Source of the DNA: a virus | Lineage: Duplodnaviria > Heunggongvirae > Uroviricota > Caudoviricetes | IMG/VR virus record: IMGVR_UViG_2671180846_000031 | Length of the DNA: 8,338 bases | Direction: 5' to 3' (one strand) | Part shown: one piece after another, positions 858 to 6,661 of the stretch | Layout: each line of letters opens with the position of its first letter | Position numbering within the stretch: position 1 is the first letter of the stretch | The notes under the pieces: generated by a model | Seen by the model: only the letters and a program-made list of their open reading frames with translations | Told to the model about the DNA's origin: nothing | The model's database searches: none | Translations under genes and position numbers: made by a program

Positions 858-2443
858 CCAGCATCCCCTTCATTTCCGCAGCAAACATGGCATCACTGAG
901 CAGCGTCATCAGGCGGGAATCATCCATTTCACGGTAAAGGGCAGGCAGGTCTGCCAGTGCCTCCGCCAGCCCCCGCGTTCTGATGGCATCAATGACCGGC
1001 TCCAGTACCGGGTCGATGGCCTCCTGTAACCGGCGGGCAGGCACCGCATCCCCCATGTCGTCCAGTTCATCTCGGGGGCTGCTNNNNNNNNNNNNNNNNN
1101 NNNNNNNNNNNNNNNNNNNNNNNNNNNNNNNNNTCCTGTTTTTCCGGTGGCATCTCTTTGTCTGTCTGAGCAGGTTCATTGCCACTCTGACGGACACGGA
1201 AGATGGCTTCACCGGGGGCAGGCTGTGGAATACCGGTCTGCTCCCGTACCCAGGGATCAGGAATATCCATCCCCGTACTGAGCTGCATCACCGCACTGGT
1301 GATTTTGGTGATATCCCCCGGCTCTTTTGTCTGGAAACAGATACGCGGCAGGCGACGGATATCAATGGCGTGGGCGGTGTTCAGGGCATACAGCGGATAC
1401 ACCAGATCGCGGTTCAGCGTGGCGGCCAGCTGACGTAAATCAGAATCCCTGATTTCCCGGCGCACCTCGTTATGCACTTCACCCAGCGAACGTGCGCCCT
1501 TGTCTCCGGCTTCCGTGGTCAGCGTGCCGCCGAGGATAGCTTTGGAGATGGAACGCTCCCCCCACGAAATCATGGTTTCAAACGGATCGGCCTGACCGTT
1601 CGCTGCCGCCTGAAACTCCAGCGACATCCCGGCCGGGATGATCCCGCCTGTACGTCGCCCGATATCCATCACCGCCCGCATCAGGGCGCTTTTCTGCTCC
1701 GGCGTTGCCCCGGACGGGTATTTACCGACCTTCATCGGCAGGCCGTACACCTCCAGAAATTCAGCCAGATCGCGCACGGAATAGTTTTTGAAAATGAACG
1801 GCCAGATAAGCGTTCTGACAAGCCCCGTCGCACCACCGTAGCCGGTGCGTGAACGTGACTGATGCACTATCCAGCCAAAGGGCTGAAACGCCACCCCGGC
1901 ATGGCTGCCGTCACGCAGCCGCAGTTCGCTCAAATCATCCGGGTTAAGGCAGAAATGCCCGCTGTCACGCCAGCGGATGGCGCGGATGATGTGCATTTTA
2001 CCGAGCATCCCGTGCTCAATCTCCATGCAGGAATAGCCTTTCAGGATGGCATCGGTGGCATCAAACAGCATGGCATCAAACCAGTCGGCGGAATGCAGAT
2101 ATTCGTCGAGCATTTCCGCGTCCTTTTTCTCATTCGCGCTGGCGTTCGGGGGCGGCTCAATACTCCAGGGCACGCCCTGAATGGCAAGACGTCGCTTGCC
2201 CAGCTCTGCAAAAAGGTGGGTATCCTTTTCTTCAATGTCAGCGGCCAGATCGGACTGGGCAATCAGATCGCCACGTTCAGCCCCGCGAAGGCACTGTGCC
2301 GCCCGGTTCGGGGTGATACCCGAGGCCGGATGTTCAATATAACGGCTGGCAATCTGCGGAATATCCAGCGCGGCGCTCTGCATCTCCGGGTCAAAGGAGA
2401 AAGGTTTTCCGTCAAGATCAATTATACGTCCCACTACCAGCAC
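841..2443 (-). CDS. Phage portal protein, Mu gp29-like (DUF935-type), interrupted by the N gap at 1084-1133
   Basis: A 458-aa ORF (1067..2443) plus an 80-aa C-terminal continuation (841..1083, ending ...EMKGMLDGTGD). The frames differ only because the gap length is arbitrary. It lies between the large terminase and F as in Mu. The ORF-track start is GTG at 2443, overlapping the terL stop (TAG 2434-2436); the true start is uncertain (next in-frame ATG at 2383, without a good SD). Confidence 0.75.
1084..1133. other. Assembly gap or masked run (50 N) inside the portal gene
   Basis: Exactly 50 consecutive N in the sequence. Confidence 0.95.
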
Positions 2444-4098
2444 CCCCGATCAAATTCATGATATGCCTCATCGTCATCACGATAACCGCCCTCCATGGCC
2501 CGCGACCGCTCCGGCAGCGCCTGACAGGCTGATTCATCCAGGATGAAGCCCTCCATGTATGACGCCCGGTTTGCCATACAGAGCGCCACGGCAAAATCGC
2601 CATGGCGGCGGGCGTTCACAGCCGTTGCGTTCTGGTCCTTCGTACGCCCCTTGTCAATTTGCGGGATACCGTTCACCACCTTCACATGGCGCAAATCATC
2701 AAGCGTGGTCTGATGGCGGGCGACGAGGATATTCTGATCCTCAAACTCGGCCTTCAGTTTTGGCATCCACTCGCCGTACCACTTCGGCGATAACATCACG
2801 CAGTCGATGATGTCCGGGCCAAAGGCCAGCAGCGCGGCTTCGGCCAGATAGCCGCCGTTACCGGTGGCGTCGAACGCCGCACCGACCAGCGCCGGAACGC
2901 GGGTCAGGATGTACATCATCACCTGCTCCTGCTGGGCATACGGCAGGTTGCGCAGCTCCACGCGAAACACCTCGCGTTTTGCCAGGGATTCAGTGATTTC
3001 CAGCAGCACAAAGCAGGAGAGGTCACCGATGCGGGCAAAGTCTTCCCCGAAGCTGAAGCGGGAACGGGGATTTAACGCCTCTAAAAGCGGTTTTAAATGT
3101 TCTTCACACCAGGTTAAAACCTCCGATTCACGCAGCCATGCGGCACGGCTGATGAAGTCGTCCGGGGCTTCAAACGTCAGAATCGGGATGTCGCGGAGCA
3201 TCGCCATTTCAATAAGCGCGTGAGGAATATAGGCACCGCCGGATTTTTTCGGGATACAGCCGTATTCCTCGTCGGCATCCTCACGGGTCGGGGCGTTTTT
3301 GTAGAGATCATCACGCCACTTCTGCTCGCTTTCCGGTGACCATTCGCGGCCGGTGACATAACAGATACGACGGTACAGCCCGTCCGCAATGGCATCATCC
3401 AGGGTAATGCGGTGGACGCTGTAATCCTTGCGCCCCTCGCGGGCTTCCTGAATGTACTGATTAAACAGATTATCGACGCCGTTATGCGTGGAGATAATAC
3501 GCACGCGCGCGCCCCACATGGTGAGCGCCATTGCCGCCTTGAGAAGCTCATCCAGTGACTCGTGGAACGCGGCTTCATCAATCACCACATCCCCCTGAAG
3601 GCCGCGCAGGTTTGACGGACGGGAAGACAGTGCCTGAATTTTGAATCCACTGTTCGGAAAGCGGATCATGTAGGTCAGAATTTCTTCTTTTTTATCCCGA
3701 TCCCAGAAGGTCTGCTCATACACATCAGCATCTGCCAGCTGGTTAAAGGCACGGGAGAACAGTGCGCAGGCAGAAATATATTCCAGCGCCATCTCCTGCT
3801 TTGACCCCACATAAAACACATTGCGGCCACCACGCCGCTTAGGCTTTGCGGCGGTAATGACGTTACGCCCGGCTTCCGCCCAGGTAAGCCCGGTGCGGCG
3901 GGATTTTTCCGCGATGCAGACCTCGCTTTCATCCTCAAACCAGCGGGCCTGATAATCCAGAAATACCGGCATATCACCGGGCAAATCAAGGCTGTCCGGC
4001 ACATCCACGCCCAGCAGGGCTTTTTCACCGGCCAGATCAATTTTGCGGGTGGAGACGGTATTCGTCAGTAAGGGGGAGAGTTCTTCGGCGTTATTCAT
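2434..4098 (-). CDS. terL: Terminase large subunit (Mu gp28-like)
   Basis: A 554-aa ORF whose ATG (4098..4096) overlaps the stop of the upstream small-terminase gene (ATGA). It carries a P-loop-like segment (EKSRRTGLTWAEAG) and a Walker B-like GDVVIDEAAF, followed by an acidic C-terminal half consistent with a nuclease domain. Size and position between the gp27-like gene and the portal match a phage TerL. Confidence 0.85.
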   Translation of the reverse strand: MNNAEELSPLLTNTVSTRKIDLAGEKALLGVDVPDSLDLPGDMPVFLDYQARWFEDESEVCIAEKSRRTGLTWAEAGRNVITAAKPKRRGGRNVFYVGSKQEMALEYISACALFSRAFNQLADADVYEQTFWDRDKKEEILTYMIRFPNSGFKIQALSSRPSNLRGLQGDVVIDEAAFHESLDELLKAAMALTMWGARVRIISTHNGVDNLFNQYIQEAREGRKDYSVHRITLDDAIADGLYRRICYVTGREWSPESEQKWRDDLYKNAPTREDADEEYGCIPKKSGGAYIPHALIEMAMLRDIPILTFEAPDDFISRAAWLRESEVLTWCEEHLKPLLEALNPRSRFSFGEDFARIGDLSCFVLLEITESLAKREVFRVELRNLPYAQQEQVMMYILTRVPALVGAAFDATGNGGYLAEAALLAFGPDIIDCVMLSPKWYGEWMPKLKAEFEDQNILVARHQTTLDDLRHVKVVNGIPQIDKGRTKDQNATAVNARRHGDFAVALCMANRASYMEGFILDESACQALPERSRAMEGGYRDDDEAYHEFDRGCW

Positions 4099-4679
4099 CA
4101 GGCTTTACCCAACAGAATCCCCTTAATACGGGACTCAAGCTGTTCACTCATCCCGTCCACGCCGCGCAGCTCGTCGGTGACCGCGTTTGCCATCTCTTCA
4201 GCAAATGCGGCCCGGATTTCTTTTTCACGCTTAATGCTGCGCTCGGCAGCACTTTCCGCACGCTGTGCTGACAGGAGGATGTCTTTGATGAGGCGCATAT
4301 CCACGTCGCTGTCGCTGTTCAGAGATTCGGTCGCGGCACGCAGGCGGCGGTACATCAGGGCGCGGGACATTTCCAGAATCAGCGCTGTGGTTTCACCGGT
4401 TGGCTTGTCCCCCAGTTCGGCCATCATGGCTTTTGTCTGCTCGCGTAAATCACGCAGGTTACGGGCAATCAGCTCATTACGGGAGGCTTCCCGGCTGATG
4501 GCCGCCGGTGAAAGCTGCTGCTCTTCCGGCAGGCCCGCCTCACGGATCAGACGGTTGATTTCCTCGCGGATCTGGACCTGCGTCAGACGTTTTTCACGCA
4601 GCATTTCCAGCAGCGGCTTACGGATGCTGTCGGGGAGCAAATCCACCTTGCGCACGCGGCCACGCGTCGGCTTGTCCAT
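4098..4679 (-). CDS. Mu gp27-like protein (DUF3486-type), putative terminase small subunit
   Basis: A 193-aa ORF with ATG at 4679 and AAGGGGG SD about 7 nt upstream. The basic N-terminus (RGRVRKVDLLPDSIRKPLLEMLREKRLTQVQIREE) looks like a DNA-binding region, followed by a charged helical C-terminal half. It sits immediately upstream of terL and is translationally coupled to it. Confidence 0.65.
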   Translation of the reverse strand: MDKPTRGRVRKVDLLPDSIRKPLLEMLREKRLTQVQIREEINRLIREAGLPEEQQLSPAAISREASRNELIARNLRDLREQTKAMMAELGDKPTGETTALILEMSRALMYRRLRAATESLNSDSDVDMRLIKDILLSAQRAESAAERSIKREKEIRAAFAEEMANAVTDELRGVDGMSEQLESRIKGILLGKA

Positions 4680-4681
4680 CG

Positions 4682-4972
4682 CTACCCCCTTGCGCGTGGT
4701 TTCTTCACACCCGGAACGCAGGCCCGGCCTTCCGCCACATCCTGCCCACGACCGGTCAGTTCCGCGATGAAATAACCGTTAATCAGAACGCGTTTGCGCA
4801 CCAGTCCCTGCTCGGCAAGCCAGGCAATGTGGGTGTGAACGGTGTCGCGGGACACGCGGTGGCCGTAATCATCCAGACAGTCCTGGAGCACGGATTCACC
4901 CAGTTCACCGTTGTAATCTGCCAGCGACCGCAGAATGACCAGACGCTGATCTTCAGTAATGAAATCACTCAT
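4682..4972 (-). CDS. Small conserved phage protein, Mu gp26-positional equivalent; function unknown
   Basis: A 96-aa ORF whose ATG (4972..4970) overlaps the stop of the upstream gene (ATGA), with AAGGA upstream. It is soluble (no TM segment) with a basic C-terminal tail (GVKKPRARG). No family is confidently recognised from sequence alone. Confidence 0.5.
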   Translation of the reverse strand: MSDFITEDQRLVILRSLADYNGELGESVLQDCLDDYGHRVSRDTVHTHIAWLAEQGLVRKRVLINGYFIAELTGRGQDVAEGRACVPGVKKPRARG

Positions 4973-5277
4973 TGCGTTTTTTTCCTTACAGCCTGCTCCA
5001 GCAGCAGTTCGTTCTGATAGGAGACAGAGCGGAGCGTGGCGTTCGTGGTTTTCAGTTCACCCCGCAGGGTCACGATTTCCACATTCAGACGGTTGACCTC
5101 AGCTTCTGTCGGCAGTGACGACAGGCGGGTTTCCACCTTCTCAACGCGGTCGGAGAGTTTTTCAAAGGCCTCGCGGGGGACAAACGTTTTGCGCATCAGC
5201 GCCATGAATATCCCGCCAGCGGTTGCCGTCGCCGAAAGGATCGGCACAACATAATCTTTAACGATGCTGACCCACAT
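4969..5277 (-). CDS. Small type-II membrane protein, Mu gp25-like; candidate lysis-associated protein (possible releasin)
   Basis: A 102-aa ORF with GGAGG SD about 8 nt upstream of ATG 5277. It has a single N-terminal TM helix (VVPILSATATAGGIFMALM) followed by a coiled-coil-like segment (EKLSDRVEKVETRLSSLPTEAEVNRLNVEIVTLRGELK). Position after the spanins matches Mu gp25. Confidence 0.55.
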   Translation of the reverse strand: MWVSIVKDYVVPILSATATAGGIFMALMRKTFVPREAFEKLSDRVEKVETRLSSLPTEAEVNRLNVEIVTLRGELKTTNATLRSVSYQNELLLEQAVRKKTQ

Positions 5278-5485
5278 GACGGGCCTCCATGATGTTCTGG
5301 CAGTTCACACAACGGATGGCATCCGGCACAGCAACAAGACGTGCGGCGGGGATCTCTCCGCCACAGTCCGCGCAGACACGTCTGCCCGGAGCATCCATTG
5401 CCCGGCGCTTACGTGTCAGCCGGTTACAAAGGGCGCGTTCTGATCCCCGCTCCATCACAGCCTGAGCACGATCTGAATCATCCAT
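5258..5485 (-). CDS. TraR/DksA-family C4-type zinc-finger protein
   Basis: Contains C-x2-C-x17-C-x2-C (CADCGGEIPAARLVAVPDAIRCVNC), the DksA/TraR zinc-ribbon spacing. Preferred start is ATG 5485 with AAGGA SD, 10 nt after the o-spanin stop, giving about 75 aa (TraR-sized). The ORF track extends to an upstream in-frame ATG at 5551, which would overlap the o-spanin. Confidence 0.7.
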   Translation of the reverse strand: MDDSDRAQAVMERGSERALCNRLTRKRRAMDAPGRRVCADCGGEIPAARLVAVPDAIRCVNCQNIMEARHVGQHR

Positions 5486-5495
5486 ACCTTTTTCC

Positions 5496-5867
5496 TTACT
5501 TCGTCTTTCCTGCCGGAACAGCAGGCGTTCCGGCCATATCAGTAAATTCATGTTGTCGCCGCGCCTCCAGACGACGAATACTGGCCTTGTCCACGTTGCA
5601 GTTCTTGATCACCGCCAGCAGTTGCAGGTTGTAAGTGACCGATGCCCCAAACGTGAACGGCTCCGGCGCAGGAGGGACCAGGCAGTCAGCCAGCCATTCA
5701 GCGGGGATCGGCACCGGCTTCACAGGCACGTATTTCACAGACGGCCCGGCGCACCCGATCAGCCACATCATCAGGAACAGGGGCAGAGGCCGCAGGCACT
5801 GCCGCCAGCGACCGGCGGACAACGCTCTGCTGCCCCTCGCTGTGCTGAATGTTCTGTTGTTTTTCAT
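5496..5867 (-). CDS. o-spanin (Rz1-like outer-membrane lipoprotein), overlapped architecture
   Basis: Alternate-frame ORF that begins inside the i-spanin gene and runs 200 nt past its stop. It has a lipobox LIGC and a proline-rich mature region (AGPSVKYVPVKPVPIPAEWLADCLVPPAPEPF). Tentative start is ATG 5867 with GAGG SD, but that gives an unusually long pre-lipobox region, so the start is uncertain. Confidence 0.55.
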   Translation of the reverse strand: MKNNRTFSTARGSRALSAGRWRQCLRPLPLFLMMWLIGCAGPSVKYVPVKPVPIPAEWLADCLVPPAPEPFTFGASVTYNLQLLAVIKNCNVDKASIRRLEARRQHEFTDMAGTPAVPAGKTK

Positions 5868-6198
5868 TCGTGGCCGCCTCACTGATTTGTGAAATGAGTT
5901 GCAGGGTGTGCTGCTGATTTGCCAGCACCTGACGCGCCTCATCCCGCTCACGCACAAGCACCTGATTATTGTCTTCAAGGCGCTGCGTCTTCTGGTGCAT
6001 TCCCCATATAGCGGCAACCAGTACAGCGATAATCCCCAGCGCCGCCATGCACGCCCCGGCAATCAGGGCCGGTAAGGCATTATTCACCGCAGCCACAGGA
6101 CACCCCGTAACAGCAGTACCGCACACAGCAGCGCTATCATGAGCGGTCGCCAGAAGCGGTTCAGACTTTCGGCAAGTCGTAGCGACATAACCATTCAT
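5698..6198 (-). CDS. i-spanin (Rz-like inner-membrane spanin subunit)
   Basis: A hydrophobic TM segment (ALPALIAGACMAALGIIAVLVAAIWG) is followed by a long charged, Gln-rich helical domain (QKTQRLEDNNQVLVRERDEARQVLANQQHTLQLISQISEAATNEKQQ...) and a C-terminal Cys pair (RRAVCEIRAC). It is immediately downstream of the endolysin and contains the out-of-frame o-spanin. The start is ambiguous: ATG 6198 (overlaps lys by 38 nt), GTG 6096 or 6087, or ATG 6048; the ORF-track start at 6219 is a TTG. Confidence 0.55.
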   Translation of the reverse strand: MNGYVATTCRKSEPLLATAHDSAAVCGTAVTGCPVAAVNNALPALIAGACMAALGIIAVLVAAIWGMHQKTQRLEDNNQVLVRERDEARQVLANQQHTLQLISQISEAATNEKQQNIQHSEGQQSVVRRSLAAVPAASAPVPDDVADRVRRAVCEIRACEAGADPR

Positions 6199-6661
6199 CC
6201 GCCGAACGGCGGGCCTCAAGGCCGGGGAGTTTCACCCCCTTTGAATAAATCCAGCGGATATACTGCTTACAGGACGCGGGCATCTGCCCGGCATTGATCA
6301 GGCGCAGAAGCGTGGAGTTGCGGAAGTTCGTTTCACCGGCCCAGAAGATCCACGAAGCCAGCGCCACCGTCTGACCACGGGTAAGCGGCACCTGAACACG
6401 CCGATCAATGGCCGCAAAGGCCCATTTCATGTCCTTTTCCAGTAGTTCCAGGCATTCTTCATCTGTCAGGGTCATACCCGGTTTCACATCCGGGCCGGTA
6501 TGGCCGTAACAGATGGTGGGTGTACCGGTGGGATCGATATACGTGGAGTTTTCTTTCCCTTCCCAGTAACCGGTGTAATGCGTGGCAATCGTGAACGTCC
6601 CGGCACCGGCCAGAACAAGGGCAATCAGCTTTTTACGCAGTGGTGCGGGGAGTTTTGGCAT
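6161..6661 (-). CDS. lys: Endolysin, T4-type lysozyme (GH24) with N-terminal signal-anchor-release (SAR) domain
   Basis: A 166-aa ORF with ATG at 6661. The N-terminus MPKLPAPLRKKLIALVLAGAGTFTIATHY has basic residues then a weakly hydrophobic Gly/Ala-rich helix, typical of SAR endolysins. It is followed by YWEGKENSTYIDPTGTPTICYGHTG, which has the Glu...Asp...Thr catalytic spacing of T4-lysozyme-like enzymes. Mu Lys is a known SAR endolysin. Confidence 0.8.
   Translation of the reverse strand: MPKLPAPLRKKLIALVLAGAGTFTIATHYTGYWEGKENSTYIDPTGTPTICYGHTGPDVKPGMTLTDEECLELLEKDMKWAFAAIDRRVQVPLTRGQTVALASWIFWAGETNFRNSTLLRLINAGQMPASCKQYIRWIYSKGVKLPGLEARRSADEWLCRYDLPKV

Follow-up and report, generated by a model that had tools for sequence, protein, structure and literature searches.

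TraR of the F plasmid and five phage homologues were shown to bind RNA polymerase, to inhibit the promoters rrnB P1 and rpsT P2 and to complement a dksA deletion (PMC9239242). A DxxDxA tip is required for the activity of both TraR and lambda Orf73, substitutions of the tip aspartates abolish activity, and Orf73 was reported to raise the lambda yield 3-4 fold (PMC9239242). TraR consists of three elements, formed by residues 2-27, 28-57 and 58-73, and its tip must sit beside the active-site Mg2+ (PMC6970531). Contacts are made by R48 with the beta' rim helices and by the C-terminal helix with the beta-lobe Si1 (PMC6970531, PMC9239242), while E46, R49 and K50 form an interface with beta'-Si3 which has an approximately two-fold share in activation (PMC6970531). 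The five phage homologues assayed are encoded by early genes, by lysis-lysogeny genes or by genes of unknown context (PMC9239242, section 17). This paper will focus on a TraR-like gene located on the minus strand of a stretch of 8,338 nucleotides (nt) of viral DNA (IMG/VR record IMGVR_UViG_2671180846_000031), referred to as the window in its whole length. The gene belongs to a Mu-like prophage of Escherichia coli, in which it lies among the genes for lysis and packaging.

The protein encoded by this gene is, on the evidence of profile and residue comparisons, a member of the TraR subfamily among the DksA/TraR zinc-finger proteins. Its sequence suggests, with a probability of roughly 0.7, that it is a late-made binder of RNA polymerase's secondary channel which would shut down the promoters of ribosomal RNA (rRNA) independently of guanosine tetraphosphate (ppGpp). 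The gene and its parts are located as follows, with the basis of each assignment in brackets.

5258-5485, minus strand: TraR/DksA-family C4 zinc-finger protein, 75 amino acids plus stop, taken as the true coding sequence (PF01258, TIGR02419, phrog_54 and the Prokaryotic Genome Annotation Pipeline, PGAP)
5300-5374, minus strand: zinc ribbon C38-C41-C59-C62, including R49 and L50 (PDB alignment, translation, homologue conservation)
5470-5482, minus strand, approximate span: codons of the tip D2-D3-S4-D5-R6-A7, DxxDxA (alignment with TraR D3/D6/A8)
5489-5498, minus strand: stop codon TAA of the o-spanin gene (5498-5496), overlapping an AAGGA Shine-Dalgarno sequence (sequence)
5486-5551, minus strand: upstream 22 codons of the maximal open reading frame (overlap with the 3' end of the o-spanin gene; no Shine-Dalgarno sequence before the ATG at 5551)

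The maximal open reading frame (ORF) comprises 97 codons; it lies on the minus strand and spans 5551-5258. The ORF with the C-x2-C-x17-C-x2-C motif, which a reading made from the sequence alone (here the sequence-only reading) had placed at 5258-5551, thus exists, but its true coding sequence is 5258-5485. The start codon is almost certainly the ATG at 5485, corresponding to M23 of the ORF, and the codons 5486-5551 are probably not translated as part of the TraR-like protein. An AAGGA Shine-Dalgarno sequence is located 7 nt upstream of this ATG, following directly on the o-spanin stop, and inspection of the sequence revealed no such site ahead of the ATG at 5551. The 97-codon ORF shares its first 66 nt with the o-spanin gene, and the profile matches to TIGR02419 and phrog_54 begin at ORF residues 23-24. 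By PGAP, a coding sequence of 228 nt was annotated here as 'TraR/DksA family transcriptional regulator' (WP_000342749.1). A longer N-terminus is also disfavoured because the extension would bury the DxxDxA tip. From the start at 5485, the product has 75 amino acids in comparison to 73 for TraR, in agreement with the size given by the sequence-only reading. In the numbering of the 75-amino-acid protein, the zinc motif reads C38-x2-C41-x17-C59-x2-C62.

The gene is a conserved coding gene under purifying selection. For E. coli variants of 83-87% identity, ratios of nonsynonymous to synonymous substitution rates (dN/dS) of 0.17-0.29 were obtained, and the half of the protein containing the zinc ribbon is unchanged across these variants. 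A word-indexed homologue search gave relatives of at least 73% identity; the distant ones were obtained from an exhaustive profile search, which identified 1,444 cluster representatives with E<=0.001. Among the best 150 of these 1,444 representatives, most have 65-80 amino acids and are aligned from their own residue 1-3. The second-best match of the same search was a protein of 3,179 amino acids (P0016), with 37 separate matches to the profile part covering the N-terminal helix and the first CxxC; it is probably a repetitive or low-complexity artefact.

The TraR-specific NCBIfam model TIGR02419 matched the protein with 76.8 bits (E=1.4e-21; curated cut-off 59.7), Pfam PF01258 with 45.4 bits (curated cut-off 24.9) and phrog_54 with E=1e-19, a level of agreement well outside what chance would give. 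The equivalog models for DksA reached 22-24 bits, far under their cut-offs of 105-289. Among all PDB sequences, the best match was F-plasmid TraR bound to RNA polymerase (5w1s_M, also 6n57; E=2e-5), followed by DksA.

Residue equivalences were taken from the alignment of the PDB match and from a MAFFT alignment which included TraR, lambda Orf73 and Mu gp24, and the roles of the TraR residues from PMC6970531 and PMC9239242. D2, the second residue of the protein, D5 and A7 align with D3, D6 and A8 of the TraR tip, R49 aligns with TraR R48, and Q63 and E67 align with TraR Q62 and E66. The acidic tip, on which the sequence-only reading had made its proposal depend, is therefore kept in the alignment with TraR and Orf73. 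The assignment to the TraR/DksA type made there is likewise borne out, by the two family models passed, by TraR as the best PDB match, and by the presence of the tip, R49, the C4 site and the C-terminal helix. Conservation was counted over 119 short homologues from the exhaustive search: D2 and D5 are each conserved in 96%, A7 in 86%, R49 in 100%, the cysteines in 98-100% and E67 in 90%, and Q63 also falls within the overall range of 86-100%.

An AlphaFold model built from an alignment of 63 sequences (predicted local distance difference test, pLDDT, 78) showed a helix at residues 3-30, a zinc domain and a helix at residues 60-73, so that the predicted fold appears to have the TraR layout of N-terminal helix, zinc globule and C-terminal helix. 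When this model was compared to the PDB by Foldseek, TraR (6n57_M) was found first, with a probability of 1.00 and a full-length alignment, and all 11 top matches were members of the TraR/DksA family, with DksA structures after TraR. The result favours the assignment to this family, although taken alone it would not settle it. An earlier model based on 7 close relatives (pLDDT 68) gave generic zinc fingers only in the same comparison.

In comparison to F-plasmid TraR, the window protein shows 33% identity and shares the DxxDxA motif at the extreme N-terminus, the C-x2-C-x17-C-x2-C spacing, the R48 equivalent, the glutamine after the last cysteine and the conserved glutamate in the C-terminal helix; judged from the AlphaFold model, it may share the three-element architecture as well. 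It differs by a two-residue insertion in the linker between helix and globule and by the replacement of the Si3-interface residues considered below. The genetic setting is also different, since TraR is encoded in a conjugative transfer operon and the window protein in the presumably late lysis and packaging operon of a transposable prophage. Lambda Orf73, P2 Orf82, VHML Orf8 and VP882 Orf61 (TraR_VP882) are of TraR size, with the same tip and zinc finger as the window protein, which has 24% identity to Orf73 and is predicted to act on RNA polymerase as they do. However, the genes of the Orf73 group are located in early or lysis-lysogeny regions (PMC9239242), whereas the window gene lies downstream of a presumed late activator gene in the lysis cassette. 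DksA has a homologous zinc ribbon and tip, and the window sequence 'ARLVAVP' resembles 'RRLEARP' of DksA, with leucine at DksA position 126. In contrast, DksA has about 150 amino acids and a coiled coil of two helices, while the window protein is half that size, lacks the first coiled-coil helix and has Q63 at the position of DksA K139. The residues of ppGpp site 2 in DksA are R91, K98 and K139, of which R91 and K98 are located on the first coiled-coil helix. Binding independent of ppGpp is expected because this helix is missing and glutamine is present at the K139 position.

The window is part of a common Mu-like (transposable) prophage of E. coli. Its DNA is 98.7% identical to an 'inserted bacteriophage Mu-like phage' within the record of an Stx2c-converting phage, and the 1-kb stretch around the TraR-like gene was found as near-identical DNA in 231 of 5,426 complete E. 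coli genomes. The prophage carrying the gene is present in many Shiga-toxin-producing strains. All genes of interest are located on the minus strand, and they were identified by family searches (Pfam, NCBIfam, PHROG). From right to left, the order is GemA, Mor/C, lysozyme, i-spanin, o-spanin, TraR-like, DUF2730, gp26-like, small terminase, large terminase and Mu-type portal, with the following coordinates for the genes surrounding the TraR-like gene.

7228-7737, minus strand: GemA (family searches)
6733-7158, minus strand: Mor/C-family transcription activator (Pfam PF08765, 111 bits; phrog_532)
6161-6661, minus strand: endolysin, a phage lysozyme with SAR-like N-terminus, encoded by the first gene of the lysis and packaging operon (Pfam PF00959, 127 bits; translation)
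5698-6126, minus strand: i-spanin, Rz-like (phrog_214; PGAP coding sequence 'endopeptidase')
5496-5867, minus strand: o-spanin of the LysC type, with a LIGC lipobox (Pfam LysC, phrog_3001; PGAP start 5738)
4969-5277, minus strand: DUF2730 protein, Mu gp25 releasin family (Pfam PF10805, 71 bits)
4682-4972, minus strand: gp26-like winged-helix protein (family searches; NF050184, PF11985 and phrog_426 for 4098-4972)
4098-4679, minus strand: gp27 small terminase (family searches; NF050184, PF11985 and phrog_426 for 4098-4972)
2434-4098, minus strand: large terminase (family searches)

The genes from the endolysin to the large terminase form a tightly packed run after the Mor/C-family gene. Within it, the TraR-like gene begins 10 nt after the o-spanin stop and its 3' end overlaps the start of the DUF2730 gene by 20 nt; it is probably translationally coupled to the lysis cassette. 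The sequence-only reading had placed it between the spanins and the packaging genes; the spanin pair is indeed located upstream, but the gene directly downstream is DUF2730, and the packaging genes follow after it. Mu gp25 is the founding member of DUF2730 and was described as a 'releasin' required to free the Mu signal-anchor-release (SAR) endolysin from the membrane (PMC9239132). Since the downstream gene belongs to this family, the TraR-like gene lies inside the lysis cassette, in the slot of Mu gp24. The position of the gene within the lysis cassette, to whose translation it is probably coupled, leaves the further statement that it is unrelated to lysis without proof.

Some further observations concern the neighbours and the window itself. 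The N-terminus of the endolysin, RKKLIALVLAGAGTFTIA, resembles the SAR domain and the lysine pair of Mu gp22, and together with the DUF2730 protein the SAR-like endolysin suggests a holin-less, releasin-dependent lysis system like that of Mu. The PGAP start of the o-spanin (GTG at 5738) omits the lipoprotein signal. An alternative ATG at 5867 has GAGG 9 nt ahead of it, and translation from there yields MKNNR...LFLMMWLIGC, which contains a LIGC lipobox; the o-spanin gene would in that case share sequence with the i-spanin gene at the 3' end of the latter (overlapped architecture). The window contains three runs of exactly 50 N (204-253, 503-552 and 1084-1133), and its segment 254-502 repeats 563-811 with 97% identity; in comparison to a complete genome, about 181 base pairs (bp) are absent at the first run and the third stands for 46 bp. 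These irregularities in 1-1133, within the Mu F (gp30) and portal genes, look like scaffold gaps or collapsed prophage copies and not like biology. Rfam and ARAGORN scans of the window gave no matches. Outside the window, in the same prophage of strain 2012C-4502, RefSeq lists a 'tRNA-OTHER' (L003 550-629) between the Mu G-like and F-like genes, at which no tRNA was found by ARAGORN.

Genes similar to the TraR-like gene are located in the same slot in a number of other phages, and among some 50,700 phage records, at least 750 contain a TraR-like gene of any kind. The genomic context was looked up for ten homologues of 33-47% identity, among them those from Thiothrix, Marinomonas and several metagenomic contigs. 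Nine of the ten belong to Mu-like elements, recognised by their GemA, Mor, Mu portal or Mu F genes, and in all nine the TraR-like gene is located after the endolysin and spanin-like genes and before a DUF2730 and/or gp26-like gene. Next come the small terminase (gp27 or DUF1804) and then the large terminase and the portal. Among the loci, different families of endolysin are found (lysozyme, GH108, M15 peptidase, amidase, muramidase, DUF5675). The tenth homologue was identified in a P2-like element (L039 5001-5219), after holin, lysozyme and two spanin-like ORFs and before gpR. The P2-like Mannheimia phage PHL101 has its ORF11 (L044 2501-2722) in the same placement, after the lysis genes and before the tail-completion gene R, and the same gene order was found in the Vibrio phages martha 12B12 (VPCG_00028) and 1.028.O. 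For the transposable Burkholderia phage KS10, a TraR-like gene in the same order, gp7, was noted by the authors in 2008 (PMC2628397). KS10 gp7, martha 12B12 VPCG_00028 and PHL101 ORF11 are of the same family as the window protein, with identities of 37-49% or less. The end of the lysis cassette is thus a recurrent placement for TraR-like genes, and in Mu-like phages of Gamma- and Betaproteobacteria the clade has a fixed place in the late lysis cassette. A TraR-like gene joined to the lysis cassette is found in a second phage lineage as well, the P2-like phages. The idea that the LysC-type o-spanin and the TraR-like gene move as one module between Mu-like and P2-like phages was rejected, since the two o-spanins have no BLASTP similarity.

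In Mu itself, the slot between the spanins and gp25 is occupied by gp24 (Mup24, 64 amino acids, 'hypothetical protein', L001 3525-3719), which has the same cysteine spacing. It was matched to the profile of the clade with an hhalign probability of 81% covering the zinc ribbon only, and it was not recognised by Pfam PF01258. Different from the window protein, Mu gp24 has EDQNRA in place of DxxDxA, and neither an R48 equivalent nor a C-terminal helix is present. It seems to be a degenerate TraR-like relative, of which the window protein would be the intact form. The Mu lysis paper (PMC9239132) does not discuss gp24.

The operon with the TraR-like gene should be late, judged from the analogous operon of Mu. 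The transcript of Mu lys runs through the packaging genes. In the window, a sigma70 promoter scan from 6661 to 4098 on the minus strand gave no promoter-like site. The only terminator-like match in the same interval, at 5365-5342, was discounted, as its T tract is weak and it falls in the codons for the zinc ribbon. A single Mor/C-family gene is located ahead of the operon, between GemA and the endolysin gene, and its product is presumed to be the activator of the operon. In Mu, both Mor and C are present, in contrast to the one Mor/C-family activator in the window; several distant Mu-like loci also have only one (L033, L035-L037, L042). Mu has four late promoters, for which the C protein is needed together with sigma70 holoenzyme (PMC12867686 and its references 23-24). 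The termini of the Mor/C-family protein (...TQMSMF... and ...TQPPLF) resemble two beta-clamp-binding motifs which were recently reported for Mu C and Mor (PMC12867686). Between the GemA stop and the Mor-family gene, a strong terminator-like hairpin was identified at 7200-7223 on the minus strand, with a 9-bp stem followed by TTATTTT, which may mark the end of the early operon.

By the mechanism considered, the TraR-like protein would be transcribed late with the lysis and packaging genes, and its N-terminal helix would insert into the secondary channel of the host RNA polymerase, binding there without ppGpp. Like TraR and Orf73, it would then destabilise open complexes and inhibit promoters with short-lived complexes, such as those for rRNA and ribosomal proteins. 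RNA polymerase freed in this way could serve the activator-dependent late promoters of the phage in the final part of the lytic cycle, in line with the proposal made for Orf73.

Several points weigh against this reading. The function of the window protein is drawn from homology only, and the structural match to TraR 6n57_M is modest (E=5.9e-3, template modelling score 0.47-0.49). In the gap between the Mor-family and endolysin genes, the Mu C-type operator (TTAT-N5-12-ATAA) is absent; the pattern has two matches in the window, both elsewhere, and at least two matches were obtained in 11 of 200 shuffles. When the same gap was aligned with Mu Plys, no block of convincing conservation was seen, so that the late promoter of the lysis and packaging operon was located neither by the search for the C box nor by the Plys alignment. 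The late role is an extrapolation, because the phage homologues assayed are early-region genes; the late position is the only feature of the clade which is not addressed in the cited TraR literature. As Mu gp24 lacks the tip, the slot can persist without the chemistry of the tip at RNA polymerase. Finally, the TraR residues E46, R49 and K50 are replaced by A47, L50 and V51. Here the protein differs not only from TraR but also from Orf73, P2 Orf82, VHML Orf8 and VP882 Orf61, which keep the equivalent of TraR R49. Among the short homologues, position 50 is leucine in 71% and arginine in 15%, and the leucine consensus of the clade is the same as DksA L126. Direct activation of promoters may be weaker than by TraR, or DksA-like, because of these replacements. 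In the cited papers the triad is a functional detail of TraR and is not family-defining.

It is a doubtful but distinctive proposal that the gp24-slot proteins form a distinct late branch of TraR proteins, which would be a conserved and working part of the lysis and packaging operon in transposable and some P2-like phages. Such a branch might act as a feed-forward switch, in which the Mor/C-type activator fires and RNA polymerase is moved from the rRNA operons to the late promoters. Alternatively, it might be physically coupled to the DUF2730 releasin and link the transcription state of the host to lysis timing in holin-less phages.

Far less probable than the mechanism considered first is an RNA polymerase binder with the main task of co-activating the Mor/C-dependent late promoters, as TraR does on F promoters, rRNA shut-off being secondary. 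Activator-dependent promoters without a -35 element can be kinetically limited, and the gene lies in the operon which those promoters drive, so that positive feedback would result. TraR raises transcription from three F promoters (PMC9239242), and the late promoters of Mu have no -35 element and need an activator with sigma70 holoenzyme (PMC12867686). However, the residues by which TraR activates through beta'-Si3 are precisely those which are not conserved, and lambda Orf73 gave no meaningful activation of lambda pR, pR' and pL (PMC9239242).

Still a little less likely is that the protein was recruited as an accessory of the lysis cassette or of morphogenesis, for example to partner or regulate the DUF2730 releasin or to set the timing of lysis. 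The conserved role would then belong to lysis or assembly and not to transcription in the host. The gene is always located between the lysis genes and DUF2730, gp26 or gp27, usually overlapping both neighbours; two P2-like phages have a TraR-like gene directly after the lysis genes, and Mu gp24 retains the zinc ribbon and not the tip. Moreover, TraR of VP882 was found to form a complex with a protein of the same operon independently of the tip (bioRxiv 10.64898/2026.07.27.740977), and one published model of releasin action invokes an unknown partner (PMC9239132). On the other hand, Mu gp25 alone was reported to help release the SAR endolysins of other phages (PMC9239132), and the TraR-like gene stays in place although the type of endolysin differs widely among the loci. 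Within the clade, conservation reaches 96-100% for the aspartates of the DxxDxA tip and for the R48 equivalent, and the only role given to tip and R48 in the cited papers is at the active site and the rim helices of RNA polymerase.

A decaying passenger gene without current function is very unlikely. The degenerate appearance of Mu gp24 would fit such a gene; no essential Mu gene is recorded in the gp24 slot among the sources found, and we know of none from Mu genetics. However, the dN/dS values, the invariant zinc-ribbon half in the E. coli variants and the motifs kept across genera argue for a gene in use. Least probable of all is that the 97-amino-acid form, which is used in some automatic public gene calls (P0001, P0003, P0004), is the real product, an intermediate-size DksA/TraR homologue which, as is the case for others of this size, may not act on RNA polymerase, since the Shine-Dalgarno sequence before 5485, the overlap of the extension with the o-spanin frame, the PGAP call, the start of the profiles and of most top-ranked representatives listed at M23 and, in distant homologues, a start codon lying in an ATGA shared with the upstream gene all speak against it.

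The protein was already named as a TraR/DksA family member in RefSeq and the mechanism of the family is known, so that it is an ordinary, uncharacterised member. Its only unusual trait is that it is kept inside the late lysis cluster by Mu-like phages and not among the early genes. Beyond the existing annotation, the analysis adds the fixed late-cassette position of the clade and the possibility to read Mu gp24 as a degenerate TraR-like relative. For genome annotation this has little consequence, and the value is modest and comparative. Should a distinct late branch be true, neither the feed-forward switch nor the coupling to the releasin would have a described counterpart among TraR homologues, since those assayed are all early genes. 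The Mu-like prophage of E. coli would represent an intact and tractable version for the effects of a late secondary-channel factor, which may concern the burst size, the shut-off of rRNA, late transcription or the timing of lysis.

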